A stretch of 56,194 nt of DNA from the NCBI GenBank assembly GCA_036525175.1, contig DATDAX010000076.1:1-56194 (forward strand), written 5' to 3'. Below the pieces are notes generated by a model. The model was not told the origin of the DNA, ran no database searches, and was given only the letters and a program-made list of their open reading frames with translations. This DNA is from Terrimicrobiaceae bacterium. Lineage in GTDB: Bacteria; Verrucomicrobiota; Verrucomicrobiia; Chthoniobacterales; Terrimicrobiaceae. The translations under genes and the position numbers were made by a program. Shown here in pieces: positions 7,893-51,766 of this stretch; position 1 is the stretch's first letter; each line of letters begins with the position of its first letter.

Positions 7893-7930
7893 TGCAAACC
7901 ATACTATCCATAACGAACGAGGGTCCTCGA

Positions 7931-25499: not shown

Positions 25500-26624
25500 A
25501 TGAGTATCCAAAGAAAACTCGACAAAGCACCCCCCTACAAGCTGCTCGCCTGCGACGGCGGCGGAATCCGCGGAACCATCTCCATCGAAATCCTCGCGAA
25601 AATCGAAGACGAGCTCCGTGCCAGCAGCGGAAAGCCCAGTCTCGTGCTCGCCGATTACTTCGATTATGTGGCTGGTACAAGCACCGGCGCTATTATTGCC
25701 ACGCTGGTGGCGCTCGGTTACGACGTCGCCACGATCCGCGACTTTTACCTAAAAAGCGGCGCGGAAATGTTCGAGCCTGCCGCACTTTGGGAACGTCTGC
25801 ACACCAAGTTCGACTCGGACAATCTGTCCCGGATGCTTAAGGAAATCATCGGCGAGCACGAAACCCTCGGCTCGGACAAATTCAAGACACTCCTGATGGT
25901 CGTGCTGCGCAACGCCACCACCGATTCGCCATGGCCGATTTCCAACAATCCCAAGGCCAAATACAACGACCGGGAGACGCGCCGCGACGATAGCAACCTC
26001 AACCTGCCGCTTTGGCAACTCGTCCGCGCTAGCACCGCCGCGCCGACGTTCTTCCCGCCGGAAACAATCCAGGTCGGCACCCAACGCTTCGTCTTCGTCG
26101 ATGGCGGCGTGACGATGTATAACGACCCTGCGTTCCAGCTCTTCCTCATGGCAACGACGGAGCCTTACAAGCTCTGCTGGGAAACGGGCCGCGAAAAGAT
26201 GCTCCTCGTGTCGGTCGGGACCGGTGCGAGCGCCGACGCAAATTCCAAGCTCACGCCGCGAGAGATGAGCCTGCTTTACAATGCGAGCCACATCCCCTCG
26301 GCGCTAATGGCCGCAGCGCTTCACGAGCAGGATTTCTTGTGTCGCACGTTTGGTGACTGCCTGGCCGGTGGCCCGCTGGACCGCGAAATCGGCGACATGA
26401 TCGGCAGAGGCATCCCGGGGCTCGAAAAGCTTTTCACTTACGTTCGCTACAACGCGGATCTTTCGCGCGGAGGGCTCGATGCACTCGGCCTGCAGGGCAT
26501 CAATCCTGAGCATGTCCAACAGATGGATTCTGTGGATCACATCGGCGAGATGCAGCAGGTCGGCCGCGCCGCCGCCGAGCGTTACGTCCATACAAAACTC
26601 CACTTCGCCGCCTTCCCAGCCTAA
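25500..26624 (+). CDS. Patatin-like phospholipase
   Basis: Has the oxyanion motif CDGGGIRG, the nucleophile elbow GTSTG (Ser codon 25680-25682) and the catalytic-dyad Asp in FVDGGVTMYNDP. Confidence 0.9.
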   Translation: MSIQRKLDKAPPYKLLACDGGGIRGTISIEILAKIEDELRASSGKPSLVLADYFDYVAGTSTGAIIATLVALGYDVATIRDFYLKSGAEMFEPAALWERLHTKFDSDNLSRMLKEIIGEHETLGSDKFKTLLMVVLRNATTDSPWPISNNPKAKYNDRETRRDDSNLNLPLWQLVRASTAAPTFFPPETIQVGTQRFVFVDGGVTMYNDPAFQLFLMATTEPYKLCWETGREKMLLVSVGTGASADANSKLTPREMSLLYNASHIPSALMAAALHEQDFLCRTFGDCLAGGPLDREIGDMIGRGIPGLEKLFTYVRYNADLSRGGLDALGLQGINPEHVQQMDSVDHIGEMQQVGRAAAERYVHTKLHFAAFPA

Positions 26625-26631
26625 CTTAGCC

Positions 26632-28707
26632 ATGCCTGCCACAAACACCCTCTGCCGCGCCTTCGTCGTGATGCCATTCGGAAAAAAGGAGGTACCGAAG
26701 GATCTGTTGAAACAGCCAAAGGTCGAAGTGACCTCCGAAGCACTCGCCTTGCAGGAGGCGCTGAAAGTCGATTTCGATGTCCTCTACGAGAAGCTCCTCG
26801 GGCCCGCGCTGCGCGAGGCGGGGTGCGAGCCTTTCCGCGCGACGGACGAGCAAGGCGCGGGCGACATCCGCAAGGACATGTTCTTCGAGCTGGTAACCGC
26901 CGACCTGGTGCTCGCCGACATTTCAATCCTCAATGCCAACGTTTTCTACGAGTTGGGCGTGCGGCATGCCGTCGGTCCACGCGGCGTGATCAGCGTGCAC
27001 GGCGGCTGGGCGAGCCGACCTTTCGACGTGGCACCGGATCGCACCTTCAACTACGACGGGCAACTCTTCATCGCCGACCTCACTCGCGACGCAGCGTGGG
27101 AAGTGCGTGTCTCGAAAGAAGTGAGCAAACTCGGTGCTGTCTTGCGCAGCGCCATTGCCAATGATGAACAGGAGATCGGCAGCCCCGTTTACAGCCTTGT
27201 GGAAGGACTAAAACCCGTCGACTGGAGCGGGATCAGCACTGCGCGGGCAAAATATTTCCAGAGTATCTCCGAAGAATGGCGTCAGCGTGTGAAGGTGGCA
27301 CGCAAAGAGCGCCATCCGGGCGACATCCTCACGCTCGCCGGCGACATGCCTACCCGGCTGCACCGTAAGCAACTGCTCTGGCAATGCGCTCGCGCGCTCG
27401 TCGAGATCCATCGCTTCGAGGCGGCGCGCGGCGTCCTCGATGATCTTCTGGAAATGGACCGCGACAACTTCGAGACGAAATCTCTGTTAGCACTGGTTGA
27501 TAACCGGACCGGCCGTTCAGCCCATGCGGAGGAAAGCCTCGATGCATTCGTCAACGCGCGGCCCGGCGACGGTGAAGCGCAAGGAATGCTCGGGCGCGTT
27601 TACAAAGACCTCTGGCGGGTCGCATGGAAGGACCAACCGACCCTGGAAGAGCGGCAGACGGCGGCGATGGAAAACGCCGTTATCGCCGCCAAAGCGATCG
27701 CCACCTATGAGCGCGCGCTGCGCCATAACTTGAGCAACTACTACAACGGCATCAACGTCGTTACCCTCCAGTCGCTGCTCGATTTCCTTGCCGAAAAGAC
27801 TGGCACGTTTCCCGCCGAGACTGGCATCACCGATCTGCCTGAACTGGTCTCCGTGGTTAGCGTCGCCACGCGGCAAGCGCTGAAAAATCCGGGCGAAGTC
27901 GCCTGGGCCGCGCCGACGCTTGGTGAGCTTGAACTCGTCCGCGGCAACGGTCCCGAATCCTTGCGACGCTATCAACAAGCGGCCAATGCGCCCGGTGTTC
28001 CATATTTCGAGATTGATTCCATGCTCGGTCAGCTCCGGCTGTTCGAGGGGCTTGGCTTCCGGGCAGAGGCTGTGGCACCGGTGATCAAGCTGCTCGAGAA
28101 GAAGCTCGCCCAGCTGGGAAATCCCCTGCCCACCTTCGGCAAAGTGGTCGTATGCAGCGGACACATGATCGACGCGCCCAGCCGCGAGAATCCCCGCTTC
28201 CCAACAAGCAAGGAAAGGCCCGTGCGCGAGAGGATCGCGGCGCAGCTGGCCGCTTGGGGCGTCGGCAAGGGCGACCTCGCCATCTGCGGCGGAGCATGCG
28301 GCAGCGATATCCTCTTCGCCGAGGAATGCCAGCGCCTCGGCGCTTCCGTACGCCTCCTGCTCGCCCTGCCGCGCGCTGAGTTCGTGGCAAAGTCGATCGC
28401 CTTTGCCGGTTACGAGTGGGTACAGCGGTTCGATCAACTTGCCAAAACCTGCGAAGTGGCCGAGCAGACCAGCCGGCTCGGGAATCCACCTGCGGGACTT
28501 GATGTCTTCAGCCGCTGCAATCTCTGGATCCTCAACTCGGCGCGTGTCGAGATTGGGCCCGCCAGTCAGTTATATTCCGTTCTTATCTGGGACGAAAAGC
28601 CGACCGGCGACGGCCCCGGCGGGACCTCCGACTTCGCGACGCGCGTCCGGGAACTCGGCGGAGTCGTTGAGGTCATCAACCCGATGAAATTTCCGGAGCC
28701 GGATTGA
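26632..28707 (+). CDS. Three-domain protein: N-terminal nucleoside-2-deoxyribosyltransferase/TIR-like Rossmann domain, central TPR (DUF4071/ASK1-like) region, C-terminal SLOG/LOG-like Rossmann domain
   Basis: The N-terminus has FVVMPFGKK...DLVLADISILNANVFYELGVRHA. The middle has GMLGRVYKDLW and NYYNGINVVTL. The C-terminus has VVVCSGHMID...LAICGGACGSDILFAEEC...VRLLLALP. The ATG at 26632 lies 7 nt after the patatin stop. Domain names are from memory, not a search. Confidence 0.6.
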   Translation: MPATNTLCRAFVVMPFGKKEVPKDLLKQPKVEVTSEALALQEALKVDFDVLYEKLLGPALREAGCEPFRATDEQGAGDIRKDMFFELVTADLVLADISILNANVFYELGVRHAVGPRGVISVHGGWASRPFDVAPDRTFNYDGQLFIADLTRDAAWEVRVSKEVSKLGAVLRSAIANDEQEIGSPVYSLVEGLKPVDWSGISTARAKYFQSISEEWRQRVKVARKERHPGDILTLAGDMPTRLHRKQLLWQCARALVEIHRFEAARGVLDDLLEMDRDNFETKSLLALVDNRTGRSAHAEESLDAFVNARPGDGEAQGMLGRVYKDLWRVAWKDQPTLEERQTAAMENAVIAAKAIATYERALRHNLSNYYNGINVVTLQSLLDFLAEKTGTFPAETGITDLPELVSVVSVATRQALKNPGEVAWAAPTLGELELVRGNGPESLRRYQQAANAPGVPYFEIDSMLGQLRLFEGLGFRAEAVAPVIKLLEKKLAQLGNPLPTFGKVVVCSGHMIDAPSRENPRFPTSKERPVRERIAAQLAAWGVGKGDLAICGGACGSDILFAEECQRLGASVRLLLALPRAEFVAKSIAFAGYEWVQRFDQLAKTCEVAEQTSRLGNPPAGLDVFSRCNLWILNSARVEIGPASQLYSVLIWDEKPTGDGPGGTSDFATRVRELGGVVEVINPMKFPEPD

Positions 28708-28786
28708 TAGGGACACGGCGTCAAAGGTCTTCAGAGGGCGATGTATTATGTGTTCCATCGATCGACGCGATTGACTCGCAAACCAA

Positions 28787-31597
28787 TCAATCGTCCGATA
28801 CGCCTTCGCCGGGAGGAAGCTCTGCGAATGTGCGCCGGTAGGGGAGTGTTCCGAAGAAGCGTTTCCATTCGGCGAGTGAGAGATTTCGATTCGCCCGGCG
28901 GGCCGCCCGCCGCTGCCACGTGTCGAGACTGGCATCAAGCAAGAAAAGCCCGGGAGGATTATTGAGACCCACAGCCAGCGTTTTCCCATCCGGGCTGAAG
29001 GCGATCGCATTTACCGTGAAATATTCTCCTTCGGTGAAGGCTGAGACACCCAAGGGTTGACGGCTTTCGGCATCGACGAAGCGCAATGTGCCCCCGAATC
29101 CCGCCATCACGAGAGTCTTGCCGTCGGGGCTAAACGAGAGTCCGGAGACCCTGTTGACAAAGCTCCGGGGTAGTTCGCCACGAGGGCGATGGCTTGCAAC
29201 GTCCCAGAGCAACACGCCGCCTGCGTCATCGCCGGTGCATAGCACCTTACCCGTGGGATCGAAGGTAGCGCTCCAGACAGCGGCGAGATGCCCCGGAAGT
29301 GGAGAGCCCTGAGGCCGGCGGGTGCGCGGATCCCAGAGTCGGACGTTTTTATCATCCCCACCGGAGGCCAGCACCGTTCCGTCGGAGCTGAAGGCGACGC
29401 AGTAAACGCCGCCTTTATGCCCCTCCAATGATTCACCGAGGGGTGACCGCGCTTGTGCGTCCCAGAAACGCAGGGTGCCGTCGCTGCCACCAGAGGCGAG
29501 GAGCTTGCCATCCGGGCTGGAAGCGATGCTCCAGATGTAACTCCCGGCCAGGTGGCCCACGAGAGGTGCGCCGATCGGCTGGCGCGTCACCGCATTCCAA
29601 AGCCGTACCGTGCCGTCCTGGCAGCCCATCGCGAGCACCTTGCTCGCTCCAACGAAAGCGAGGCTTTGGACTCCATCCCAATACTCGAGTGTTCCGAGCT
29701 TTTTGCGCGCCCTCGCATCGAAAATCTCAACGTGTTCGCCGGAGACGGCGAGCAAGGTCCCATCTTTGCTAAAGGCCAAGTGGGAAGTCCGCCCACCAAT
29801 TTGTTCACCCAAGAGAGGGGCAGGTTCGACTTCCCAAAGCCGAATGGTCCCGTCTTTGGCTCCGACGGCGATCTGCCGGCTATCCGGGCTCACCGTGAAG
29901 CTGGCCATCTCACCGACGAAGATCGGCTGCCCGATGAAGGTGGCATGCTCCCAATCGTAGCGATGAATGGCTCCGTCCAGGCCTCCCCAGGAGAGGATCT
30001 TGCCATCGGCGCTAAAAGCGAGATGCAACACCCACCCGGAGCGGCCGACAATAGGCTCGCCGATGGGCTGGCGACGAACAACGTCCCAAAGACGCACAAC
30101 TCCCGTACGATCGCCGGACGCAATGACTTTCCCATCAGGACTGAAGGCGAGCTGCGTGATCCATTCAGTATGCCCAGTAAGTTTCCCAAGTGGTTGGCGC
30201 GTGGCGATTTCCCAGAGCCAAAGTTCCTCGCGAACGTCGAGCGCCAGCAACTTGCCATCCCGACTAAAAGCGACACACGCGGGCTCGCCCGCCCCGAACT
30301 GCGGCTGCCAGGCCGCCCCTAGCCCCAGGATCGGCTCGCCAATGCGTTCTCCAGTAGCGGCATTGCGCAGGGAAAGGTCTACCACATTGCTGACAGCGAG
30401 GGATTTGCTGTCAGGGCTGAAGACGACGGAGGTGACCGTGCCGCCGAAGCGAACGGCCTCCCCACGGAGCCTGCGCGCCGAAACATCCCAGATGCAAAAG
30501 TCGCCGTCCTGAGTGCCCGCAGCCACGCTCGCACCATCCGGACTGAAGCTGAGGCAGCGGACTTCGTTTGAACTGCCCGAATGGCGTTGCTCGAAAACGT
30601 GAAGTGGTGCAGCGACTTGACGCCGTTGCTTCCAGTCCCATAAGCGCACGCTTCCATCGAAACCGCCAGAGACCAGAGTGGACCCATCGGGGCTGAACGC
30701 AATTGAGGTCACCGGCCCCCGATGCCCGTGCAGGAAGGTGGAGAGTCCCGGCTCCATTTGGAGCGCGGAAAGGAGCGTATTCCGCGCCTCGGCGGTATCG
30801 GCAGCACGACACGCCTCGACGCCGAGGAGCAGTGCGAGCGGAAGCTGATCGCGTAGATAGGAGAGGCCAAAGCCAGCCAGCCGTCCGGCGCCTGCGATTC
30901 GCGCCTGCGACTGGGCCTCGTTGCGCTGCGACCAGGCGAGCACCGCCAAAATCAGCGAGACGACCAGGCCCGCCGACACCGCTCCGAGAGTGATCCGCTG
31001 TCTATTAGCAGCAGCTTTGCGGCTGGCGATAATATATCCGGTCTGAAGCGCAGTAGGCTGCCGTTCCTTGTCCGTGCCGGCCTGCGCGAGCCATTGCTCG
31101 GCATCGCGCAGATCGTCTCCACGAAGGACAAAGCTGTTGTTTTTGCCTTTGGCTTCCCATTCGATCGCGCGCGTGAGCAGACGGGTGTGCGCGTGAACCC
31201 ATGCGAGGTCGATATCGAGCGCAGTGATCAGCGTCTCGATCGCCTTGGCGAAATCGTCGGTCTCGCGGCAAAAAATCCAGTTCAGCTTCGCGAGCGCCTC
31301 CGGCACATCAGCGGCATTCACGTCGCGAGCGACGACCGGCACCATCCGCTTGTTGTGCGCCGCGGCGTGCGCGATCTCACGCCCGCAGACAACTGACGCG
31401 ATCGAATCCGGCGTCAGCACAAAAACAAATGTATCAGCCGCTTCGATCGCGCCGTAAATCGCTCTCATGAACTCCTCGGTGGGCCGGATGCCTTCCCAGT
31501 CCACCCATGCCTCGCGACCGCGACGTTTCAGCGCCTCATCCAACTGTTGGACGAACTCCTTGTCCTTGCGCGAGTAGGAAATGAAAACGTCAGCCAC
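28787..31597 (-). CDS. TIR domain - single TM helix - WD40 beta-propeller protein (paralogue A)
   Basis: GTG start. The TIR domain has DVFISYSRKD...FVFVLTPDS..S..CGREI (Glu74 codon 31376-31378). A hydrophobic helix ITLGAVSAGLVVSLILAVLAW lies at about 30932-30994. More than 12 canonical WD40 units follow (GH.G.V.S.AFSPDG..L.SG..DG..RLWD). Confidence 0.9.
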   Translation of the reverse strand: MADVFISYSRKDKEFVQQLDEALKRRGREAWVDWEGIRPTEEFMRAIYGAIEAADTFVFVLTPDSIASVVCGREIAHAAAHNKRMVPVVARDVNAADVPEALAKLNWIFCRETDDFAKAIETLITALDIDLAWVHAHTRLLTRAIEWEAKGKNNSFVLRGDDLRDAEQWLAQAGTDKERQPTALQTGYIIASRKAAANRQRITLGAVSAGLVVSLILAVLAWSQRNEAQSQARIAGAGRLAGFGLSYLRDQLPLALLLGVEACRAADTAEARNTLLSALQMEPGLSTFLHGHRGPVTSIAFSPDGSTLVSGGFDGSVRLWDWKQRRQVAAPLHVFEQRHSGSSNEVRCLSFSPDGASVAAGTQDGDFCIWDVSARRLRGEAVRFGGTVTSVVFSPDSKSLAVSNVVDLSLRNAATGERIGEPILGLGAAWQPQFGAGEPACVAFSRDGKLLALDVREELWLWEIATRQPLGKLTGHTEWITQLAFSPDGKVIASGDRTGVVRLWDVVRRQPIGEPIVGRSGWVLHLAFSADGKILSWGGLDGAIHRYDWEHATFIGQPIFVGEMASFTVSPDSRQIAVGAKDGTIRLWEVEPAPLLGEQIGGRTSHLAFSKDGTLLAVSGEHVEIFDARARKKLGTLEYWDGVQSLAFVGASKVLAMGCQDGTVRLWNAVTRQPIGAPLVGHLAGSYIWSIASSPDGKLLASGGSDGTLRFWDAQARSPLGESLEGHKGGVYCVAFSSDGTVLASGGDDKNVRLWDPRTRRPQGSPLPGHLAAVWSATFDPTGKVLCTGDDAGGVLLWDVASHRPRGELPRSFVNRVSGLSFSPDGKTLVMAGFGGTLRFVDAESRQPLGVSAFTEGEYFTVNAIAFSPDGKTLAVGLNNPPGLFLLDASLDTWQRRAARRANRNLSLAEWKRFFGTLPYRRTFAELPPGEGVSDD

Positions 31598-31760
31598 GGC
31601 ACTGGATGCTGTTTGCCACTAAGTTCCGTCGTTGGCAGCCCAGAGCATTTGGACACGCCTCAGTGCGCGCCCTACCAGCGCCAGTCCGAAAGTCCCCGCC
31701 TTTCATGGCGGCGATTACATGCCCCATTTTCGCTGAGCGCAACGGCAAATCTCGCCGCCG
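30930..31760. repeat. Duplicated segment, copy A (5' leader + TIR + linker + TM of the TIR genes)
   Basis: Aligns by eye along its length with 35093-35925 at high nucleotide identity, including about 165 nt upstream of the GTG start. Confidence 0.85.
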
Positions 31761-32011
31761 TGCGGACCGGTTAGGAGCCGTCGTGGCGGTTGGAAAGGTC
31801 TGTCTCAGCCCGAGAACTTCGGGATCGTGCTGCTCGATATGGGACATTTAACGGAAGAGTCGACCTTTCTTGATTTCTACAAGAGGAAGGCATCAAAGGC
31901 GGGTCAGGAGTAAACAGAGACTCTACCGAAGTATTCGCTCCTGCTGTGCAGTAATTGCTCGCCATTGCTCTTGCTGATTAAAGACGTTGTTCCCACGAGA
32001 ATTCGTTATTT

Positions 32012-32692
32012 ATGTTCAGCCACGCTTCCAAACTTCCTGCAGTCCTGATCGCGTGCTGTGTGGCCGTCACCCTCGGTGCAGCCGGCGCGTGTGATGGCCC
32101 GCGCAAGGTGCGCGAGGCGACCGTCGCGAAGATCAAGGCATTCATCAACGACCAGCAAATGACAGTGCTGACCTTCGCCGGCTATTCAGGGGCAGAGTAT
32201 GAGGACCCGCAGACGATGTTGGCGCACGCTTCACGCGTCCTCGACGGGCTGGACCCGGCGAAAACATTAATCAATATCGGTGCCACGGAGGTGGGAATCG
32301 GCGCCGTTTACGAGCTCTCAAAGCGAAAGGGATTCACAACCATGGGCATCGTCTCCACCCTTGCCCGCGATGAGCGTGTTCCACTCTCGACGTGCGTCGA
32401 TTATGTGTTCTACGTCAAAGACAGTCACTGGGGCGGAAAGGTTCCCGGAACCGATCATCTTTCGCCCACCTCGGCCGCACTGGTCGAGTGCAGCACGTCT
32501 TTCGTTGCCATTGGCGGAGGCGAAGCCGCCAGGGACGAGATGCTCGCAGCACGTAAGGCTGGCAAGCCTGTTGCCTTCATTCCTGCCGACATGAATCACC
32601 GGATCGCTCGAGAGAAGGCACAGAAAAAAGGCCAGCCCGAACCGACCGACTTTCGAGGTGCCGCACATGGTTCGCTCGCTAAAGGCATCTAG
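32012..32692 (+). CDS. Exported (probable lipoprotein) SLOG/LOG-like Rossmann-fold protein
   Basis: The N-terminus MFSHASKLPAVLIACCVAVTLGAAGAC looks like a signal or lipoprotein leader. The body has LTFAGYSGAEY..., GATEVGIGAVYELSKRKGFTTMGIVS and FVAIGGGEAARDEMLAARKAGKPVAFI, reminiscent of the LOG/TIGR00725 layout. The function call is tentative. Confidence 0.5.
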   Translation: MFSHASKLPAVLIACCVAVTLGAAGACDGPRKVREATVAKIKAFINDQQMTVLTFAGYSGAEYEDPQTMLAHASRVLDGLDPAKTLINIGATEVGIGAVYELSKRKGFTTMGIVSTLARDERVPLSTCVDYVFYVKDSHWGGKVPGTDHLSPTSAALVECSTSFVAIGGGEAARDEMLAARKAGKPVAFIPADMNHRIAREKAQKKGQPEPTDFRGAAHGSLAKGI

Positions 32693-32907
32693 CACTGGCC
32701 CAACTGGCTCGAGCCGACCCGCACGAAGCCCGAGATGAAGTGTTATGCTTCGAGTGAATGCTGCCGTGCAATCGCCGGAACGCGGCTCGCCCCTTGGGGC
32801 CTCGGCAAAGGCGATCTCGCTAGCTCGGCAACCGCGGCGGAGCGTGCCGCAGCGCCGCCGTCCTGTCCGGACTTCGGAACGGAGGATAAATGCCACCGTG
32901 ACAGGGA

Positions 32908-35760
32908 TTATTTCTGCAGGCGGGTCTTTTGCGGCATCGTACCTGGACCGTAACGACTCCATTCGTCAGATGTCAGATCGCTCGCCACTTTGGCAGAGGT
33001 CTCGCGGAGGACACCATCAAGAGTGATTGGATGAAGGGTGGGCTCGGGAAAACCGTTCTGCCACCTGTAAGTCAGAATATACCTTCCATCCAGGCTGAAA
33101 CCCGCGAAACGATCACCCCGCGCGACTGGAACTTTGAAGTTTACTCCGAGCGTGTTCGCGTCATAGACGTAGATGACGCTGGGGAATGCGGCAGCTAGGA
33201 GCGTTCCGTCCGGACTAAAACTCAAGAAGTCGTCACGGTCGCCCTCCATGAATCCGCCAAAACCCAGCGGTTCCGATCGGACCGTTGGATTCTTTGCGCC
33301 GATTTTCCAAATCCCAATCATGTTCTCCTGGAGCACCGCGCATCGCCCTTTGTCAGGACTAATCGCGAAGTTCGATCCTTCTGGAATGTCTGACACGGAT
33401 TCGGTCCTCCAATCGAACAGCACGGACTTAAGCGGGACCCCATCCTGGATTTGCTCGGCGATGACGAAGTTGGACCCGGACAGGAACCACAATCGGTTGA
33501 AAGGCTTTACGTTGGGGATCAGCTGCGGGGGTGCCTTATGATCCAGTCGATAGATCTGGGACGAAACCAGCACCCGATTTTCGTCCGGCCCAAACGCCAG
33601 GGGCCCGCCGCCGGGAATCGTGATGTTTCGTTTGGTGGCCATTTCCGTTATTACCCATCCCTTGCGTTGTAAAAGCCGCGCTACAAAGCGGCCGCTCGGT
33701 GACACCACAAGCGCTCCGGCGCCTTCCCCTTTTTCCTCAGCCTGCCACAGGCGTGTTCCACCCGCATCATAGACATTCATCGAGCCGTCTGCTCCATCCA
33801 CCACAACGACACGCGCGTCCACTGGCAGGACCGCAAACTTGCTGGGCAACGTCCAACGGCTCGCCGGGGTAATGGGGACCCATCGTTCCGGGGCGAGCGA
33901 CACAACCTGAATCTTGGCGGGAAGCCGATCCCTGGTCTGGGCTGGGACACGCGAGCTCACGGCCAGGAATCGACCATCGGCACTGAAAGCGGCGCCATTC
34001 ACCGACTGCCTTTTATCGAGTGTGAAGTGGAACACCAAGGCGCTCCGAGTCAGGTCGAAGACCGAAAAGGTCTCCGGGTTTACCGCGGAGTATCCCGCAA
34101 CATACCGGCCAGTTGGACTCACGGCAGGGAGAAGCTGAAAGGTCTCGCCTTGCTTCGATGCGAACGGCAGGTCGAACGAATCCCCACCGGATGTCTTGCG
34201 TAGCTGAGCGCCCCTGACGTACACATCGCCGCCCGCGATGACGCGAGAAGGGTTGGACAAGCTCTCGACAGGCGTGGTGTTAAGCAGGCTGCCATCAGCA
34301 GCGCTTAGAATCGAATGCTGACGAGAACTGATGGCGATCACACACTTGCCATCTCCGCTGAACAAGGCTTCCTCATAATTATCGCTCGCCGGATGCCGAA
34401 CACGCCAGCGAACCGAGCCGTCCGCGACGTTGAAAGCTGTTAAGCCTTCATCGGTTTTCGCGACGACCGTCGCAGCGTCTGGACTGAGCACGACGACGCC
34501 CGCCTCCGACGGGAACATGATGCGCGACCGAACCGTGCCGGCTGTCGGATCGACCGTCCAGATCCCAGCTCGCGAAACCACGAGCAAGTTCCCCTTCAAA
34601 TCGAACGCTGCGATATCGAGATCCTCCGGAAGCGGGACGATTTGTTTGTTTCCGCTCTCGATGTCTAGAACTTCGATCGCAGATCCACCTTTTTGGTAGA
34701 CGACGACACGGTCGCCGGTTGGGCTCATAGCGAGTGTGAAGGCGGATTGATCCGCCTGGACCTCGTGGAGCTGTCGGAGATCGGGCGCTGAAAACACATG
34801 GACATGGCGATCACCGCAGAGCGTAACCAGTCTCCGTGCATCTGGAGTGAACACGATGGCAACTGCGACAGAATCCGTTGCGACATCCGTCAAAATCCTC
34901 GGCATCTGACTGACGGCTGTGTGCCAGGCTGTGTATCCAGCTTCAGTCCACGTCTCTCTGAGCGATTCAGCCGCAAGCAGGCTTCCAATTCGGAGGCCCC
35001 GACTGGGCTCCATGTCTGCGGCCTTGACAGCCTGTCCGGCCAGGAAGCGCGCCGCGGACATCTTGCCTTGCTTGATAGCATCCTGACGCGCAAACCAAGC
35101 GACTACTGATAAAATGACAGCAACGACCAGGCCGAAGCTGAGTGCTCCGAGCGTGATCAACTGCCTTTTAGCGGCGGCCTTGCGGCTGGCGATGATGTAT
35201 TCGGTCTGAAGCGCCGTGGGCTGACGTTCCTTGTCCGTGCCGGCCTCTGCGAGCCATTGCTCGGCATCACGCAGATCGTCTCCGCGAAGGACAAAGCTGT
35301 TGTTTTTGGCTTTGGCCTCCCACTCGACGGCACGCGTGAGGAGGCGCGTGTGAGCCCGGACCCAGTCGATGTCCGTGTCGAGGGCGCTGATCAGCGTCTC
35401 GGTCGCCATTTGAAAATCGTCTGATTCACGAAAAAAGATCCAGTTCAGCTTCGCCAGCGCTTCGGGGACGGCCCCGGCGTTCACCTCGCGTGCAACGATA
35501 GGAATCATCCGTTTGTTCTGCGCCAGGGCATGCGCGATTTCCTTCATGCAAACGACCGATGAGACGGAGTCAGGAGAGAGCACAAAGAGGAACGTGTCTG
35601 TTCCTTCGATCGCGCTGTAAATCGCTCTCATGAACTCCTCGGTCGGCAGAATGCCTTCCCAGTCCACCCAGGCCTCGCGACCGCGGCGTTTCAGCGCCTC
35701 ATCCAACCGTTGGACGAACTCCTTGTCCTTGCGCGAGTAGGAAATGAAAACGTCAGCCAC
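32908..35760 (-). CDS. TIR domain - single TM helix - divergent beta-propeller protein (paralogue B)
   Basis: The first ~220 aa are near-identical to paralogue A (Glu74 codon 35539-35541). The C-terminal ~720 aa have only degenerate propeller blades (FSGDGKCVIA, FSADGRFLAVSS, FSPDGTLLAAA, FSLDGRYILT) and do not align with A. Confidence 0.85.
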   Translation of the reverse strand: MADVFISYSRKDKEFVQRLDEALKRRGREAWVDWEGILPTEEFMRAIYSAIEGTDTFLFVLSPDSVSSVVCMKEIAHALAQNKRMIPIVAREVNAGAVPEALAKLNWIFFRESDDFQMATETLISALDTDIDWVRAHTRLLTRAVEWEAKAKNNSFVLRGDDLRDAEQWLAEAGTDKERQPTALQTEYIIASRKAAAKRQLITLGALSFGLVVAVILSVVAWFARQDAIKQGKMSAARFLAGQAVKAADMEPSRGLRIGSLLAAESLRETWTEAGYTAWHTAVSQMPRILTDVATDSVAVAIVFTPDARRLVTLCGDRHVHVFSAPDLRQLHEVQADQSAFTLAMSPTGDRVVVYQKGGSAIEVLDIESGNKQIVPLPEDLDIAAFDLKGNLLVVSRAGIWTVDPTAGTVRSRIMFPSEAGVVVLSPDAATVVAKTDEGLTAFNVADGSVRWRVRHPASDNYEEALFSGDGKCVIAISSRQHSILSAADGSLLNTTPVESLSNPSRVIAGGDVYVRGAQLRKTSGGDSFDLPFASKQGETFQLLPAVSPTGRYVAGYSAVNPETFSVFDLTRSALVFHFTLDKRQSVNGAAFSADGRFLAVSSRVPAQTRDRLPAKIQVVSLAPERWVPITPASRWTLPSKFAVLPVDARVVVVDGADGSMNVYDAGGTRLWQAEEKGEGAGALVVSPSGRFVARLLQRKGWVITEMATKRNITIPGGGPLAFGPDENRVLVSSQIYRLDHKAPPQLIPNVKPFNRLWFLSGSNFVIAEQIQDGVPLKSVLFDWRTESVSDIPEGSNFAISPDKGRCAVLQENMIGIWKIGAKNPTVRSEPLGFGGFMEGDRDDFLSFSPDGTLLAAAFPSVIYVYDANTLGVNFKVPVARGDRFAGFSLDGRYILTYRWQNGFPEPTLHPITLDGVLRETSAKVASDLTSDEWSRYGPGTMPQKTRLQK

Positions 35761-35925
35761 GGCACCGGATGCTGTTTGCCTCTAAGTGCCGTCGTTGGCA
35801 GCCCAGAGCATTTGGACATGCCTCAGTGCCCACGCTACCGGTGCCAGTCTGAAAGTCCCCCCTTGCATGGCAGCGATTACACGTCCCCTTTGCACTGAGC
35901 GCAACAAATTACGTAGGAATAGGCA
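35093..35925. repeat. Duplicated segment, copy B
   Basis: See copy A at 30930-31760. Confidence 0.85.
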
Positions 35926-36164
35926 TCGAGGGTTGTTCTGGCGGCGGCAGAAAAGGCGGCGAGACCTGCCCCAGCAAGCACTTTGGACTCATGCGTTTCT
36001 AGTTACCTTCAGGGCTCTCAGTTTTAGTTTCGGCTTTAGCGCTGGGTGGACTGCCCTGGTGCTCGTGCGCGATGGTAACTGCCAAGACCTAGGAAATGAA
36101 CCTAACCACTTTGCACGAAGGATCGCGTCAAAATTCGCGCCGGACGCTCGGCCTCAGGTCATAT

Positions 36165-36956
36165 TTACGCAGCAGCTCCCCGAATGAGGCGTTCCAACCT
36201 TGCCGTGAGTTTCTCAAAATGTGTTCCAGACCAGTAAATCCGACCGCAGCCGCAGCACCGGCGGAAATTATCGTAAAAGCGCAAAGTGAGCGGTTCGCCA
36301 GAAAGCCGGGTGAGCACTTCTGACTTCGGCACGGATAGCAGCAATGAGTTGCAGCGGAGACATCGCTGATAGGGCGCAAGGTCGCCGGACTCGGGAGCGA
36401 GGCCGAAACGTCGGAGCACCTCGCGCGCTTGTTCCTCCGCATCCACGCTGCGAGGGCTGTAACCGTGCCGGACGATGGAATGCATCAGCAGGCGGCGATC
36501 GCGAGTCAGCAGCGCGCGATCTTCCGCGACCATGATTTCGAGTAACCGACGATCGTCGGCGTCGCGCTCATAGGCAGTATCAATCCCAAGCAGCCGTAGG
36601 TTGCGCGCGAGTTTGCCGAGGTGACCATCGGCCACGAACCGACACCAATGCTTCGTCTGCAACCTCGGTGCCCGCGGCAGAACCTCTGCTGGTGCAGGAA
36701 CGGCGAAGACTTCCACCCGCCCAGGAGCCTGCACCTGCCAGGCAAAGGTGACCGCTGTCCGCTCGCCGGTGCAAAGATCCGTCGCAACGATCAGATCCAC
36801 CTCCGGGTGCGGCACCCCACACGCCTCAATCACATCCTTGATCGCCGTCTTTTCCCACAACGCACGCAAGAGGCAATTCTCGCTGCGCAAGCCCCGCACC
36901 CCACGACGTAGGAAAAACCCGAGTTCAGCGGAAAAGCTGAGTTCCACCTCAAACAT
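36165..36956 (-). CDS. Mut7-C RNase domain protein (PIN-like nuclease with N-terminal ubiquitin-like domain and C-terminal zinc ribbon)
   Basis: Contains RFVADGHLGKLARNLRLLGIDT...LLTRDRRLL and a terminal C.RCN...CCGCGRIYW.G.H, which matches the PF01927-type layout as I recall it. Confidence 0.75.
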   Translation of the reverse strand: MFEVELSFSAELGFFLRRGVRGLRSENCLLRALWEKTAIKDVIEACGVPHPEVDLIVATDLCTGERTAVTFAWQVQAPGRVEVFAVPAPAEVLPRAPRLQTKHWCRFVADGHLGKLARNLRLLGIDTAYERDADDRRLLEIMVAEDRALLTRDRRLLMHSIVRHGYSPRSVDAEEQAREVLRRFGLAPESGDLAPYQRCLRCNSLLLSVPKSEVLTRLSGEPLTLRFYDNFRRCCGCGRIYWSGTHFEKLTARLERLIRGAAA

Positions 36957-44746: not shown

Positions 44747-47700
44747 ATGAGTAACGTCCTTCTGGTTCCGATGCACCTGGATGCCCTCTGTCTCAAAACT
44801 GATCTGTCCGTTGTCGAGGCAAAGGTCGATTTTTCCCGGATGCCCTACTGGGATGGGACACGCGAAATCAACCACGATGTCGCCAACATCAGTGAAGAAC
44901 TCCTCGCTCGCCCCTTTGAAGACCGTGGGCTGCAGCTCAAGGCGGGTGTTCACCTCCATTGGGCGCTGCCGGATGCCCTAACCAAAGGCGTGATTGCGGA
45001 AAACTGCACGAGCTTCTCGGCTGTCCCCAACCGCTGGCTGGTCACCAGAAGCAGGCTAGATGAAGATGGGAAGGAGCGTCTGGAGCGCCAGTGGATTGTT
45101 GAGAGCGATTATCTCTATCCTGATGACGTAGGCGCGCTGTCAGGCAGTATCGCGATTCCTTTTCCTGCCGAGAAAGACCACCCGCCGTTCCGCTACCTGG
45201 GGCGCAAAATGTCTTTCAACGCCTGGACAGAAGCCACCGCAGAGGGCGCGACAGGGAAATATCTCGGCGCGTTGGGGTATCAACTGACGGCCCTTGGATA
45301 TCAGCATAAAGCACTGCATACCATGGCGACGGCGCCAGGTCGCGGCTATGCTGAGCCCACTTTTGCGGCCTTTTACCCCAATTGTCAGAGTGTCTTCGGC
45401 TTTCATGATGCCGATCCCCCGGCAACGTTACGGGGCGTACAGTACGACGTCATGGGTTGGTACAGCGATCCCACCCAAGACTGTCTGCGAGCCATAGAAA
45501 CTCTGATACAGGAGCGCGCAAAGATCACGAAGGAAGCCCTCACCCTCAAGGCAGCCCTCCAGGAAGTCTATCAATGGGACATGACGGCGGACGCCCAAGC
45601 GCATATCATTCCGGACTCAACGGTGTGTTATGCCCGCCTCACCATCGAGACGGGCACCCCGCCCTCTTGTGTACGTCAGGACAAACCCGTGACGATTGCG
45701 GTAGGGAATACGAGCACCCAGGCGCTGTCAGCCTATATGGCCCATACGCTGGCCCCAGCGCTGAAGATGAGCCCGTCACGTCTCGAGGAACAGTTGGAAG
45801 CGCTCCATCTCGCCTCGCGGTTAGGCGCCAGGAAATTGGACATCGGACCAAAATTCGAGGAAGCGCGACACGAACGAGGGTTTACGGCGGTGCCGGCCGG
45901 CACCCTATGGACCATTCGTCAGGTAAGCGCCAGCCCCCACCCCCCCGATGCCACCGGAGACACCCCGCAAGAAACGCTTCCCGACGAGCTGGCACACTCG
46001 CTGAACGCCCTGAATCTTGTGCAGATGGCCTATGACCAGGCCGGCCACGATCTGGAGTCGATGCAGAAGCAACTCTTTGCCGACTGGTATAAATACATGC
46101 TGTGTGCCTATCCTCCCGATGACACCAGGGATGATTATCCGGACATTGATGAGGTGCGCTATTTCATCGAAAAAAATGATCTCGTGCCGATCACGCGCCA
46201 ACAGGGGAAACGCCAGGTGTTGCGATCGCAATGCCGGCGACTGCATGCACAGGTCGCGGCAAAGGTCCAAGAGTATCAGGAGCGGACGAAGAAACCCTAT
46301 GCATTGCAACCACGCCCGGCACCCCGCTACTGGCGACCGCATGAACCCGTGCTGCTTATCGTGGATGAGGAGATACCGCCGACCACACGCCATGGGCAGG
46401 ACGGGCGCTTGCATCCGGAGGGCTTGCTCACATGTCACGTGCAGTCCGTCAACGCCGCTGACATCAAAACACAGCTTGCTGCTCTCCGGGAGACCATAGG
46501 CACACTCCCGCTGAAGTTGGGAGAGGATGCCATCGGCTGGCACACCTGGACGGAGCAACCCTGGCATCCCTTTATCCTGGAATGGCGTGTGGAGCTAAGT
46601 CCCCTGGACGAGAAGAACAACCTGGACGCAAAGAAGCGAGCGTATGCCCCGGACTTCATTACCAGCAGTTATCAGTTGGAGGAAGACGCCGTCGACCTCG
46701 TTCTCAAGCCGGGCAAGGCGGCCGTCGAAAAGGCCGCGAGTACGTTCACCGGCAGCAGCCTGCTCACGCCACATGCCAAATTCCAGTTACAGAAGCAAAT
46801 CAAAGCGTTTTTGGCCCGAACAGGACGACAGGATGATGACCCGGTCACGCAAGCGATCCAGAAAGTGTCCCAAAAGCTCGACAGCCCCAGCTTCCACGCG
46901 GTCGCGCAATCACTGAATGGCTTCAACGAAGCCCTGCTGATGCACAAGCAAACCTTGCAATTGCCCATTGCCGACCCCTTGGGGTTTGAGGAGGCGCAGG
47001 ATTTTACCAAGGCAGTACACGATGCTGTAGGGCCAAGCAATCGCAGCGCCCCCCAACCGCAAAACGATTTCCACCCGATCCGCACCGGAGTCCTGAAGAT
47101 TCATGCGCTACGTGTAGTCGATACCTTCGGCCGCGTGCAAAATCTGACCTTGCACGACGACAAGGTGATGGCCACCGAGATCATGACCACCCCCGCGAAT
47201 CCGCATTTGGTCTTGTTGCCACCGCGTCTGGCGCAACCGGCTCGCCTCAACTTCCGCTGGCTGGCGGCAGACCGCGGGGCTACCTCAGCCGACGATGAGC
47301 CGGAGATGAATGCCCATCCGGCGACCACCCCAGTGTGTGGCTGGTTGCTGCCGAACAATCTCGACAACAGCCTGATGGTGTACGACAACACCGGTCAGGC
47401 ATTAGGTTCCATAAGCGCGCGCGAGCGCAGATGGATACCGGCGCCGGGGACGTCGATCCTGCCGAATGCGCAGTGGAACGTGCACCTTAGGACGCTCGTC
47501 ACCCATGTGCTCCGCATGCCCGACCCATTTTTAGAGGATTTTCTGACCGGCATCGAGGTCGCGCTCGAACGCATCGACCCGGAAAACTTCGCTCAACACG
47601 AGGCCCTGGCGCTGCTCATGGGCCGGCCGATGGCGGTCGTCCGCGCGGTGGTCAACCTGGAATTGCGCGGCCAACCAGCCATTAATCAGCACTGGAACGT

Positions 47701-48526
47701 GTTTCGGACCGATATGGAGCGCGATCTGCAAGGCGAACTGACACAGCCTGGCGGCGGGCGGAACCAACCGGCCCAACGAGAAACCGATGCTGTCGGCGGG
47801 GTACGCTTTCCCATCCGCCTCGGCGACGATCGGCAGTTAAATGATGGGCTGGTCGGTTATTGGAAAGAGCAGTGGTCCAAAGATAGTGAGACGTACTCGT
47901 ATGAGAAGAACCGCTTCTATGTGCATGCGTGCGACAGTGCCGAGGTGTGCAAGATGGACCTCAGCAAACTGCCGCTAACCGCCAAGCAGAAGGACGATGT
48001 TGCTGATTTGTTGCGCCACGGACCGATGGTCAAGAAACACGACTTCGTGGCACGCCTTGCCGAGGGGGAGAGCATATGGACCTTGCTTTGTGAGAAGAAT
48101 GTGATCCGCGAAGTCGAGCGCAACCGGTACATCCACTACGCCGCGGATACGCCCGACCTCGCCCAGGCCATTGCCGACCCGCCGCAAAAGCTCACGATGC
48201 TGGTGGACCCGCGCGGTGTCGTGCATGCGACATGTGGCATTCTGCCCACGAAAGCGCTTGGCATTCCGCCCGATCAATATGCCAAGGCTTTACAGACCCT
48301 AGCCATCACCTTTCTCTCCGCTCCCATCCTCACTGGCGTGGGGGATAAGGTGCGCCTGCCGGTGCCGACGGAACCGGGTTATGTCTGGTCCTGGCTTGAA
48401 AAGCAACAGGGCGCCTGGTCCGAAAGCGCGCCCATCGGGCCGATGCCACTGGAGGCCACGTTTGCCGAAGCCCAGGCGATACGGGAAGGCTGGTTGAAAT
48501 TGACCAAAACACGGGAGGAAATATGA
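44747..48526 (+). CDS. 1259-aa orphan protein (no family recognised)
   Basis: Long uninterrupted ORF with protein-like composition and no signal peptide. Its stop overlaps the next gene's start (ATATGA at 48521-48526). Confidence 0.85.
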   Translation: MSNVLLVPMHLDALCLKTDLSVVEAKVDFSRMPYWDGTREINHDVANISEELLARPFEDRGLQLKAGVHLHWALPDALTKGVIAENCTSFSAVPNRWLVTRSRLDEDGKERLERQWIVESDYLYPDDVGALSGSIAIPFPAEKDHPPFRYLGRKMSFNAWTEATAEGATGKYLGALGYQLTALGYQHKALHTMATAPGRGYAEPTFAAFYPNCQSVFGFHDADPPATLRGVQYDVMGWYSDPTQDCLRAIETLIQERAKITKEALTLKAALQEVYQWDMTADAQAHIIPDSTVCYARLTIETGTPPSCVRQDKPVTIAVGNTSTQALSAYMAHTLAPALKMSPSRLEEQLEALHLASRLGARKLDIGPKFEEARHERGFTAVPAGTLWTIRQVSASPHPPDATGDTPQETLPDELAHSLNALNLVQMAYDQAGHDLESMQKQLFADWYKYMLCAYPPDDTRDDYPDIDEVRYFIEKNDLVPITRQQGKRQVLRSQCRRLHAQVAAKVQEYQERTKKPYALQPRPAPRYWRPHEPVLLIVDEEIPPTTRHGQDGRLHPEGLLTCHVQSVNAADIKTQLAALRETIGTLPLKLGEDAIGWHTWTEQPWHPFILEWRVELSPLDEKNNLDAKKRAYAPDFITSSYQLEEDAVDLVLKPGKAAVEKAASTFTGSSLLTPHAKFQLQKQIKAFLARTGRQDDDPVTQAIQKVSQKLDSPSFHAVAQSLNGFNEALLMHKQTLQLPIADPLGFEEAQDFTKAVHDAVGPSNRSAPQPQNDFHPIRTGVLKIHALRVVDTFGRVQNLTLHDDKVMATEIMTTPANPHLVLLPPRLAQPARLNFRWLAADRGATSADDEPEMNAHPATTPVCGWLLPNNLDNSLMVYDNTGQALGSISARERRWIPAPGTSILPNAQWNVHLRTLVTHVLRMPDPFLEDFLTGIEVALERIDPENFAQHEALALLMGRPMAVVRAVVNLELRGQPAINQHWNVFRTDMERDLQGELTQPGGGRNQPAQRETDAVGGVRFPIRLGDDRQLNDGLVGYWKEQWSKDSETYSYEKNRFYVHACDSAEVCKMDLSKLPLTAKQKDDVADLLRHGPMVKKHDFVARLAEGESIWTLLCEKNVIREVERNRYIHYAADTPDLAQAIADPPQKLTMLVDPRGVVHATCGILPTKALGIPPDQYAKALQTLAITFLSAPILTGVGDKVRLPVPTEPGYVWSWLEKQQGAWSESAPIGPMPLEATFAEAQAIREGWLKLTKTREEI

Positions 48527-51500: not shown

Positions 51501-51570
51501 CCTGGTGAAGAAATCGCACAATGAAGTGCGTCTCCTAAGCTTTTACTGCTCCGGCAACGATAATATATGA
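48523..51570 (+). CDS. LamG (concanavalin-A-like lectin) domain protein with C-terminal fibre-like G-x-[VL]-G-I-G-T repeats
   Basis: The N-terminus has FDG....I.IP......GDVTVEAWV...WYHLAGV..G..GSLYLHD...GRIAHIRVYNGARSQAEIEQ (Laminin_G_3 pattern). The C-terminal half has GHVGIGTPTPKSTLSV, GTLGIGTPQPQAKLEI, GNVGIGTTDPKAALQI and GNVGIGTPLPEKRLEV. Confidence 0.82.
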   Translation: MSTELVLHLELNGFEVIDKEEIVKDVSRKHHVGTVHGRVDIVADDTFGACASFDGNASNHISIPSDNSLKNSGDVTVEAWVYVSQEASGYFRVVGRGGYPQDYSLWCVQGGGWLFQRYASIPPGSPPPPTASAAEWLNWTMNPQVVNASCQMDSPTRALNTWYHLAGVIEGTKGSLYLHDLQGKCIGYKEVHDMPSGPAFDTDGPLTIGYGPGLDFPAHTGRIAHIRVYNGARSQAEIEQGIARDRLALVPFRKSHPIDFHLYDDDDQAVLYISDDPAGHNLHLELHNTSAQVIQLHNGHGAVASEANHHFAVRFRPGTLSDSTLKALVNPQERGKILQQTEQWEVYFPPTLPAANEAAALYLLYKGPAKTIQPDERRTLTLQRMSAAPGSGARGTQVELLPHQLTAAGGDATPITGSRTQYVHITNQRGHKNIPLHVWFEGGNTVVNDGVSSTPLTLCIGNASADRDITLDATSQFLISFDVGDGADAAWTMTPHESEVHVRYEQTELPSKLAGQGISRQWSLKFPLGKVLPKRGSAGTGPLKITIEGIRTSPQASGHANLYVQYDHIPGYQDGRFILTVEKSPLVYDKKGNVAIGKPIQKVDIPKVDVAGTVVADRLSVSRDNAHRGGLFFAGAGDFNHALYNNHSNLDGEGTWDGAKWNTFKGLNIRVGNRNDKPSTLRSALLIDATGHVGIGTPTPKSTLSVAGGLAVGATYAETNAAPANSLIVQGTLGIGTPQPQAKLEIAGEATGNTPLLIVRKGAANYLTISNDGNVGIGTTDPKAALQIGNFESEDTYLKVAAGRLHRAGIQFECGQHNEYFIEFESGGPFRPGLQFTKHRPDYPNVPRVDFFLDGETGNVGIGTPLPEKRLEVLAGELRVTARHNNPTADIGAFYDPRKARGIGIGYNQIASIGSDLSQDILMVPKGQGIVRIKGPLEVNGTFRVNGLPIFDYGKRMNQDEQKKYARMLKEPTYQPGTFILFVRDDKSDDICCLVKKSHNEVRLLSFYCSGNDNI

Positions 51571-51628
51571 TTAGGGATCGAGCACAGGCAATGAAGTCAG
51601 GGCCAAAGCGGCGCTCAGCGCCTGACCC

Positions 51629-51710
51629 GAATGGCGCTAAGATAAGCGAGCTTTGGGAGGAAATTCCTCAGTGTGACGGATCGAAAACGGCCCTTATCTT
51701 AGCGCCATTC
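51629..51710. repeat. 18-bp perfect inverted repeat (46-nt spacer) bracketed by an 11-bp direct repeat
   Basis: gaatggcgctaagataag (51629-51646) is the reverse complement of cttatcttagcgccattc (51693-51710). gcgcctgaccc occurs at 51618-51628 and again at 51711-51721. Confidence 0.9.
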
Positions 51711-51766
51711 GCGCCTGACCCCATTGTGGTGAGGCACCTGTGTTATCTCAACGATAAGGATTAACT

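Follow-up and report, generated by a model that had tools for sequence, protein, structure and literature searches.

The question raised by this locus is whether a run of neighbouring conflict-type genes forms a single signalling pathway or several systems that share a place on the chromosome. The run lies between nucleotides (nt) 25500 and 36956 of a 56,194-nt stretch of DNA from a Terrimicrobiaceae bacterium (contig DATDAX010000076.1; the whole stretch is called the window below), for which the list of open reading frames (ORFs) gives six consecutive ORFs whose main domains are a patatin, a TPR-S, a TIR with WD40 repeats, a small exported protein, a TIR with a propeller, and Ub-Mut7C/Mut7-C. 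The clustering of six such genes had been pointed out in a sequence-only reading of the DNA, and we could confirm both the ORFs and their main domains and found that the families recur together elsewhere. Five of the six genes are tied to one another by recurrent, rearranged pairings across phyla, and the Mut7-C gene is not. We consider the chances to be about even that the segment at 25.5-35.9 kb represents a composite, interconnected TIR/SLOG-TPR-S/patatin conflict cluster that uses nicotinamide adenine dinucleotide (NAD) or nucleotide signalling and is of an immune or programmed-death type. The features of the region, with the basis of each assignment, are the following:

25500-26624, + strand: patatin-like phospholipase, 374 amino acids (aa), candidate effector (Pfam, PADLOC, NCBIfam, motifs)
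26632-28707, + strand: protein 2, 691 aa, with an N-terminal Rossmann-like region, TPR-S and a C-terminal Rossmann-like region (Pfam TPR-S, structural model)
28787-31597, - strand: TIR-A, 936 aa, with TIR_2, a helical linker, one transmembrane (TM) helix and two WD40 propellers (Pfam, hydropathy)
31598-31743, - strand: leader of TIR-A, 146 nt (~90% identical to the TIR-B leader)
32012-32692, + strand: protein 4, 226 aa, predicted exported LSDAT/LOG-like SLOG protein (signal peptide, model, profile comparison)
32908-35760, - strand: TIR-B, 950 aa, with TIR_2, a linker, one TM helix and a divergent PQQ/WD40-like beta-propeller (Pfam, hydropathy)
35761-35905, - strand: leader of TIR-B, paralogue of the TIR-A leader (sequence comparison)
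36165-36956, - strand: protein with Ub-Mut7C and Mut7-C (PIN-like RNase), adjacent only (Pfam)

The evidence that carries this reading comes from other genomes, where these families repeatedly co-occur in unrelated hosts, so that the clustering goes beyond chance (comparison loci and proteins are designated Lnnn and Pnnnn, numbered as in the analysis). By anchoring on protein 4, we collected 80 loci from GTDB representatives, one genome per species. TIR genes, detected with a purpose-built hidden Markov model and confirmed by Pfam for those scanned, are present in 16 of the 80, and nine TIR ORFs in eight loci lie at most 1 kb from protein 4. TIR genes are present at a density of 5.9 per 100 kb up to 1 kb from protein 4 and of 1.4 at 1-10 kb, which corresponds to a rate ratio of 4.3 (binomial P=0.0016 counted by ORF, 0.0004 counted by locus). 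Some of these TIR proteins have a TIR-TM-X arrangement, in which X is WD40 (L056, L080), an FGE-sulfatase (L053 by motif, L011 by Pfam) or, in L090, a region without an assigned domain. The divergent TIR/protein-4 layout of the window is seen again in L016 and L041, the latter having, like the window, TIR genes on both sides of protein 4. Protein-2-like genes with all three regions directly adjoin protein 4 in four of the 80 loci (L036, L062, L070, L080); in L036 a patatin, the protein-2-like gene and protein 4 are consecutive on one strand, and L080, from a gammaproteobacterial metagenome-assembled genome (MAG), brings together within 16 kb a pYEATS-TPR-S-patatin, a TPR-S-trypsin, protein 4, a protein-2-like gene and a TIR-TM-WD40 gene. 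TPR-S-trypsin genes occur in seven of the proteobacterial protein-4 loci, among which pYEATS-TPR-S-patatin and CHAT-TPR-S are also found.

The same partners were met when the search was anchored on the TIR-linker-TM module, which gave 71 soil-metagenome loci, 33 of them with at least 4 kb of flank. A patatin of the window type (47-72% identity) is located next to TIR-TM-propeller genes in 8 of the 71, and an ASK-N-like protein of ~470 aa with TPR-S (MAP3K_TRAF_bd, E=4e-37) is likewise present in 8; one or both are found in 11 of the 71 loci, amounting to ~8 non-redundant arrangements, and in 8 of the 33 with the longer flank. The ASK-N-like TPR-S gene is followed in five loci by a separate LSDAT_prok SLOG gene, and such a pair resembles protein 2 divided into two genes. 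In three loci an LSDAT_prok-SLATT fusion is found upstream of the TIR gene, and SLATT_1 proteins, SIR2_2-TIR and TIR-nSTAND1 also recur. Finally, anchoring on protein 2 gave five orthologous loci (L001-L005, 75-83% identity) whose contexts are all different; in L001 and L002 a 74%-identical patatin adjoins the protein-2 orthologue, in the company of nSTAND1-WD40, MORN and extracellular contractile injection system (eCIS) genes.

Other genes recur around these anchors as well. Three conserved proteins of ~554, ~320 and ~610 aa, with no Pfam match, are repeatedly found in L036, L062, L070, L080 and L090 (for instance at L062:8157-9821, L036:3051-3992 and L036:11182-13014), and a GH108/PG_binding_3 protein of ~670-730 aa recurs in the same proteobacterial clusters. 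A Chthoniobacter MAG locus (L015, the same as L008-L010) has at 3114-9228, upstream of its protein-4 homologue, four genes, namely a stand-alone TIR gene, a small ORF, a gene for a WD40 protein of 1,162 aa that has its own signal peptide, and a PLDc_2 gene; it looks like a "split" TIR/exported-propeller form in which a phospholipase D replaces the patatin. The commonest neighbour of the TIR-TM-propeller relatives is a Gly/Pro-rich low-complexity protein ending in PG_binding_1, present in 13 loci (L097, L101, L106-L108, L113, L114, L122, L124, L125, L127, L137 and L149; for example L106:2161-3531, - strand), always divergent and ~0.3-0.5 kb upstream of the TIR gene; the window contains no such gene.

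The sixth gene behaves differently. Its product is matched by Ub-Mut7C at 134.7 bits and by Mut7-C at 38.5 bits in Pfam, has no PADLOC match, and gave no record in an exact-sequence look-up. None of the 163 loci collected with protein 2, protein 4 or the TIR module as anchor contains the gene, and those of its relatives that share 69-72% identity are located among metabolic genes without the other cluster families nearby. Because of this zero co-occurrence with the other five genes in other genomes, we rejected Mut7-C as an effector of the pathway or a member of the cluster and dropped it from the model, which removes the RNase that the sequence-only reading had named as an effector in one of its two options.

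We then consider the architecture of the two TIR proteins. TIR_2 (PF13676) is matched in Pfam at 90.4 and 93.1 bits against a threshold of 28, covering aa 4-124 of TIR-A (nt 31226-31588) and aa 4-123 of TIR-B. In both paralogues a linker of ~70 aa leads from the TIR domain to a single hydrophobic helix, at aa 200-224 of TIR-A (nt 30926-31000) and aa 199-229 of TIR-B (nt 35074-35166), with hydropathy peaks of 2.48 (TIR-A, mean over 19 aa) and 2.55; the helix is an addition to the domains named in the sequence-only reading, and it is kept at the same place in 54 of 59 TIR relatives. Since one hydrophobic helix follows the TIR domain and the positive charges lie ahead of it, a single-pass receptor topology is predicted, with the TIR domain in the cytoplasm and the propellers outside it; the WD40 protein of L015, which has a signal peptide of its own and lies beside a TIR gene, is in line with this. 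The best sequence matches of the TIR domain in the PDB are a Toll-receptor-related protein and the TIR domains of vertebrate Toll-like receptors (TLRs). Glu74, contained in an REI motif in TIR-A and in KEI in TIR-B, aligns with the YEL Glu of the TLR15/TLR2 TIR domains at the catalytic position, and the TIR domain probably acts as an enzyme rather than as an adaptor.

Over their first 228 codons TIR-A and TIR-B share 81% protein identity (synonymous divergence, dS, 0.79; ratio of nonsynonymous to synonymous divergence, dN/dS, 0.15), and beyond this shared module the identity is ~25-35%. The same division is seen in 30 full-length relatives compared with TIR-A, whose median identity is 76% in the TIR-linker-TM module and 27% in the propellers; a putative signalling part held constant and a presumed sensor diversified is a receptor-like pattern. 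The likeness of the two genes extends upstream of the start codons, with ~90-97% identity over the leader plus the first ~110 nt of coding sequence, in contrast to the dS of ~0.8 in the rest of the shared module, which suggests that gene conversion acted here recently or that a regulatory element is conserved. The leader was not found upstream of related TIR genes. A riboswitch or other structured RNA was tried as an explanation and rejected, as there was no Rfam match, the fold z-scores were -1.25 and -1.31, and the two predicted structures differ.

Between the two TIR genes, divergent from TIR-A and convergent with TIR-B, lies the gene for protein 4, for which nothing above threshold was obtained in Pfam, PADLOC or NCBIfam. 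Its AlphaFold model has a mean predicted local distance difference test score (pLDDT) of 87, and Foldseek gave 40 PDB matches at E<=1e-3, essentially all of them LOG, Moco-carrier protein (MCP), YgdH or TRPM MHR1/2 structures. The profiles LDcluster4 (PF18306) and LSDAT_prok (PF18171) match at a sub-threshold 15-16 bits (threshold 25-26), and do so in 30-33 of 41 homologues; a profile-profile comparison by hhalign with the LSDAT_prok proteins of related loci gave 83% probability and E=9e-6. A GGG...RDE motif occupies what we take, by eye, to be the position of PGGxGTxEE in LOG. The N-terminus of protein 4 is a predicted signal peptide, in which AxA precedes a near-invariant Cys and then Asp/Glu, as in 82 of 87 homologues. 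Thus, because the positive charges are on the N-terminal side of the hydrophobic segment and AxA|C comes after it, export is predicted, and we rejected the candidate view of protein 4 as a membrane-anchored cytoplasmic effector of the Thoeris-II type. The protein is predicted, from its fold model and N-terminus, to be an exported LSDAT/LOG-like SLOG protein of the signal-peptide or lipoprotein type, in agreement with the "exported SLOG-like" label that it had received earlier. Within the family identities are 50-85%, yet its distribution over phyla is patchy, the hosts being Verrucomicrobiota, Methylomirabilota/Rokubacteria, Nitrospirota, Acidobacteriota, Gamma- and Betaproteobacteria, Desulfobacterota, Cyanobium and Mesorhizobium.

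Two further occurrences of the protein-4 fold deserve description. A 209-aa homologue with 49% identity and without a signal peptide is encoded on three IMG/VR phage contigs (L167:1072-1566, L168:7911-8540 and L169:667-1161), where its gene sits in the head-tail morphogenesis module, flanked by the genes for the head-tail adaptor and the connector and near those for the major head and major tail proteins; such a homologue could be a moron, or could serve as decoy or sponge in counter-defence. Moreover, a protein-4-like domain, sometimes in 2-3 copies, forms the C-terminus of proteins of 800-1,500 aa (P0361-P0502; e.g. P0363, P0368, P0419 and P0420) that also contain calcineurin-like phosphoesterase, cytidylyltransferase-like (NMNAT-type), Zeta-toxin kinase and LSDAT/YAcAr SLOG domains. 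These look like multi-enzyme nucleotide processors, and the position of the protein-4-like domain at their ends supports a nucleotide-related role for protein 4.

The remaining two genes form the candidate lipase/adaptor pair. The patatin is matched by PF01734 at 96.3 bits (Pfam cut-off 27.7), and its translation holds the motifs DGGGIRG (oxyanion GGGxRG), GTSTG (GxSxG) and VDGG (DG[GA]). Phospholipase-effector models of PADLOC, of the type found in the cyclic-oligonucleotide-based antiphage signalling system (CBASS), match it with E down to 6e-43, and the NCBIfam model CBASS_lipase (NF041079) at 115.8 bits, under its cut-off of 200. The ORF listed for protein 2 (26479-28707) opens 146 nt inside the patatin gene, and its 51 extra codons (26479-26631) are not conserved and probably not translated. 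The real start is most likely 26632 (M52 of the long ORF), since the homologues, which begin ~10 residues ahead of a conserved FVVMPFGKK, and an identical 691-aa database protein begin there. This start is 7 nt past the patatin stop codon, and the two genes probably constitute a two-gene operon.

Protein 2 belongs to a family of more than 2,138 homologues in which the length is kept at ~690 aa. TPR-S (PF20308) covers aa 262-379 with 57 bits against 27.6 and matches 34 of 34 homologues; a MAP3K_TRAF_bd match is weak. The structural model (pLDDT 84) has Rossmann-like beta-alpha secondary structure on both sides of TPR-S. The label "NDT/TPR/SLOG" that had been given to this protein is therefore well founded in its TPR part, and its NDT and SLOG parts are matched by no profile: an NDT-like motif (ADxxLADIS..N.NVFYELG) and LOG/SLOG-like motifs at the C-terminus were seen by eye only. 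The isolated N- and C-terminal domains gave nothing significant against PDB profiles, the C-terminus has no Pfam match at E<=1, and the N-terminus matches Rcl/DNPH1 weakly (E=1.4). By hhalign no relation was detected between the C-terminus and protein 4 or LSDAT, nor between the N-terminus and TIR. With the whole model, Foldseek gave weak matches to a phage CMP hydrolase (E=0.02) and to a DprA-like phage protein (template-modelling score, TMt, 0.70; E=0.03; matched domain not resolved), and in whole-protein searches against PDB/BFVD the TPR matches swamp the rest.

On these grounds we propose a mechanism with two modules, whose enzymatic activities, ligands, order of events and anti-phage role we infer from the domains and their neighbourhoods. 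One module would consist of the patatin phospholipase and a cytosolic sensor-adaptor made of an ASK-N-like Rossmann region, TPR-S and a C-terminal SLOG-like Rossmann region; the other would be the paralogous TIR-linker-TM-propeller pair flanking the exported LSDAT/LOG-like SLOG protein. A cue from outside the cytoplasm would be sensed by the propellers, perhaps with help from the exported SLOG protein, and the resulting clustering would turn on the cytoplasmic TIR NADase, leading to loss of NAD+ and/or to an ADP-ribose-derived signal. The TPR-S/SLOG-like protein would read this signal or perturbation and free the patatin lipase, with consequent breakdown of membrane lipids and arrest or death of the cell. 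The data themselves show the domain content, the hydrophobic helix and signal peptide behind the predicted topology, the kept catalytic motifs and the co-occurrence across phyla. A bolder version, which we regard as speculative and rather improbable, is that the TIR-TM-propellers and the periplasmic SLOG protein carry out danger sensing in the style of Toll-like receptors: the SLOG protein would bind or process a nucleotide-derived or envelope cue and present it to the hypervariable propellers, these would turn on a cytoplasmic TIR NADase that feeds the ASK-like TPR-S/SLOG adaptor and the patatin, and the phage SLOG copy would serve as a decoy or sponge.

The cluster can be compared with several known systems. 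One of them is Thoeris, whose ThsA protein bears a SLOG domain. Thoeris is made up of ThsA and ThsB (PMC7272460). The present cluster likewise pairs a TIR protein with a SLOG-type sensor and a candidate cell-killing effector, and both TIR domains give weak matches to ThsB in PADLOC (partial) and to ThsB_TIR in Pfam (20.1 bits for TIR-B, threshold 21.2); the NCBIfam model Thoeris_type3_ThcB4 gave 36.8 and 29.1 bits with the two TIR proteins, its cut-off being 220. However, none of the six genes has the SIR2 or Macro domain of ThsA (SIR2-SLOG or TM-Macro), the TIR domains are predicted to be membrane-anchored and are fused to propellers, of the SLOG-like proteins, one is predicted to be exported and the second is a fusion with TPR-S, and the candidate effector is a patatin lipase. 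The likeness to CapV-type CBASS lies in the match of the patatin to the phospholipase-effector models, but the six genes contain no CD-NTase cyclase (Pfam and PADLOC) and no SAVED/STING sensor (Pfam). PADLOC thus recognises the patatin as a phospholipase effector and the TIR proteins as weakly ThsB-like.

A closer vocabulary is that of the TIR/SLOG/SLATT nucleotide-centric systems and the ASK-like TPR-S systems predicted by the Aravind group, which use the same domains as the cluster: TIR, DRHyd and SLOG have been described as related folds for nucleotide processing and sensing (PMC7159879), and the ASK signalosome has been traced to bacterial conflict systems (PMC8195603). The likeness extends to the loci of the cluster's relatives, with their LSDAT_prok-SLATT and SLATT_1 proteins and TPR-S fused to trypsin, patatin or CHAT. 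In the searchable literature we did not find a description of the exported SLOG family or of the TIR-TM-propeller topology with these partners, nor a paper naming TPR-S along with SLOG and TIR; predicted periplasmic sensors in the conflict systems of multicellular bacteria have already been discussed (PMC10907252). The predicted layout of TIR-A and TIR-B, in which sensor repeats outside the cytoplasm are joined through one TM helix to a signalling domain inside it, resembles that of Toll-like receptors and of PknD-type kinases with a beta-propeller. Unlike Toll-like receptors, TIR-A and TIR-B have the TIR domain at the N-terminus, which reverses the order, their putative sensor is WD40/PQQ-like instead of leucine-rich repeats, and the catalytic-type Glu is kept; the resemblance is one of analogy, not of orthology. 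In turn, the protein-4 model superposes on TRPM2/TRPM8 MHR1/2 (LSDAT) and on LOG (Foldseek E=5e-5 to 1e-3, template-modelling scores ~0.45-0.5), although the sequence identity is 11-21% and protein 4 stands alone and is predicted to be exported.

The surroundings of the cluster are ordinary. The left flank holds transporters, a histidine kinase, GlpX, a thioesterase and a response regulator, and the right flank a Vgb-lyase-like propeller, a flavin adenine dinucleotide (FAD) oxidase, PRC and TMEM164; farther out there are aconitase, thiamine pyrophosphate (TPP) and aldehyde dehydrogenases, TctA and a porin. No tRNA was found in the window and no integrase or transposase domain among its scanned ORFs, which bears out what had been said of the flanks and edges. 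The GC content of the cluster equals that of the flanks, and the repeat search gave no island-bounding direct repeats, returning WD40 periodicity and the repeats between the TIR paralogues only; a promoter and terminator scan gave counts not above those of shuffled sequence. The nearest homologues come from MAGs annotated as Chthoniobacterales or Terrimicrobiaceae (Verrucomicrobiota), and the homologues of protein 2, protein 4 and Mut7-C at 75-85% identity are all in contexts unlike the window. The collection scans were anchored on the island genes and brought up no relative with the same flanks, and none of the flank genes glpX, thioesterase, response regulator, Vgb-like, FAD oxidase, PRC and TMEM164 is near an island-gene homologue in the 163 loci. 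At some distance, within 44747-53428, two very large ORFs of 1,259 aa (no Pfam match) and 1,015 aa (Laminin_G_3) are followed by a Lipase_3 protein (51767-53428), in a stretch where the GC content falls from ~0.58 to 0.48-0.51 (51-54 kb); this is possibly a second insert of foreign composition. In L001 a Lipase_3 gene is likewise near the protein-2 orthologue.

How far do these data favour an interconnected cluster over other explanations? Several results weigh against it. The association of the five genes is facultative and not obligatory: ~80% of the protein-4 loci are without a TIR or TPR-S neighbour, about three quarters of the TIR-TM-propeller relatives flanked by 4 kb or more lack both patatin and TPR-S, protein 4 is in none of the 71 TIR-anchored loci (many on short contigs), and in three of the five protein-2 loci (L003-L005) the orthologue stands alone beside housekeeping or toxin-antitoxin genes. 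The TIR enrichment around protein 4 reaches out to 10 kb, so that some of the signal reflects islands in general. The curated cut-offs for Thoeris and CBASS are reached by none of the six genes, and no known defence system was called at curated thresholds; the two outer domains of protein 2 are named by no profile; the predicted topology was drawn from hydropathy and motif reading; and, once exported, a SLOG protein has no access to a TIR product in the cytoplasm. Most of these observations about neighbourhoods would also be expected if independent conflict systems lay side by side without signalling between them, namely the patatin with its TPR-S protein, each TIR-TM-propeller as a sense-and-kill NADase, and the exported SLOG protein, and the wealth of nSTAND1-WD40, NACHT, CHAT, SLATT, SIR2-TIR and eCIS genes in the surrounding loci agrees with such an arrangement. 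We hold it to be a real though lesser possibility, because it is specific subfamilies (the patatin at 47-74% identity, the ASK-N-like TPR-S, the TIR-linker-TM module) that recur across phyla, orders and orientations, the adjacency of TIR genes to protein 4 stands 4.3-fold above the local island background, and there are split and fused forms that connect TPR-S with SLOG and with patatin (TPR-S with an LSDAT SLOG; pYEATS-TPR-S-patatin in L080). Of the two options left by the sequence-only reading, then, the single multi-component pathway is supported for five genes through their co-occurrence and fails for Mut7-C, with links that are facultative; the co-localisation of independent systems keeps the point that the units also occur alone elsewhere, and the co-occurrence favours a connected network over an accidental pile-up.

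The function may also be other than anti-phage. The genes could serve to sense the envelope or neighbouring cells, in kin discrimination, contact-dependent conflict or stress dormancy, with the TIR domain providing a signalling or NAD-regulating output, a proposal that fits the predicted location of the propellers and the SLOG protein outside the cytoplasm, the peptidoglycan-binding Gly/Pro-rich protein as commonest TIR-TM neighbour, the GH108/PG_binding proteins of the proteobacterial clusters, the periplasmic sensors already discussed for multicellular bacteria and the lack of mobile-element marks in the window. We judge it unlikely, given that the partner domains patatin, SLATT, trypsin, CHAT, SIR2 and NACHT are typical immune suicide effectors and that the protein-4 homologue carried by phages points to a phage-host conflict. 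Far less probable still is a chance neighbourhood in a core region of the genome, made of unrelated genes of which some are housekeeping genes: the GC content, the lack of tRNA, integrase and bounding repeats, and the strong sequence conservation of the Mut7-C and protein-4 families are compatible with it, but the five genes co-occur repeatedly across phyla, and no flank gene accompanies the island-gene homologues in the other loci, including homologues at 83-85% identity. An interconnected TIR/SLOG-TPR-S/patatin cluster of five genes is the reading that we retain, at the even chances given above.

TIR-SLOG signalling, as in Thoeris, and patatin effectors, as in CBASS, are established themes, and both are understood as wholly cytoplasmic. 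To these the present locus adds two elements, a TIR family with a predicted outside-in single-pass topology, in which a conserved signalling module is combined with hypervariable propellers, and a strongly conserved, horizontally scattered, predicted exported SLOG protein that is repeatedly found beside TIR and TPR-S genes and copied in phages. The cluster yields defined, testable candidates for study, namely the ligand of the SLOG protein, the product of the TIR domain and the trigger of the lipase. If the parts do cooperate, this would be a bacterial immune or death pathway responsive to what happens beyond the cytoplasm, with an architecture parallel to that of animal Toll-like receptors and ASK-type adaptors, and it would bear on the origin of the innate-immune modules of eukaryotes.

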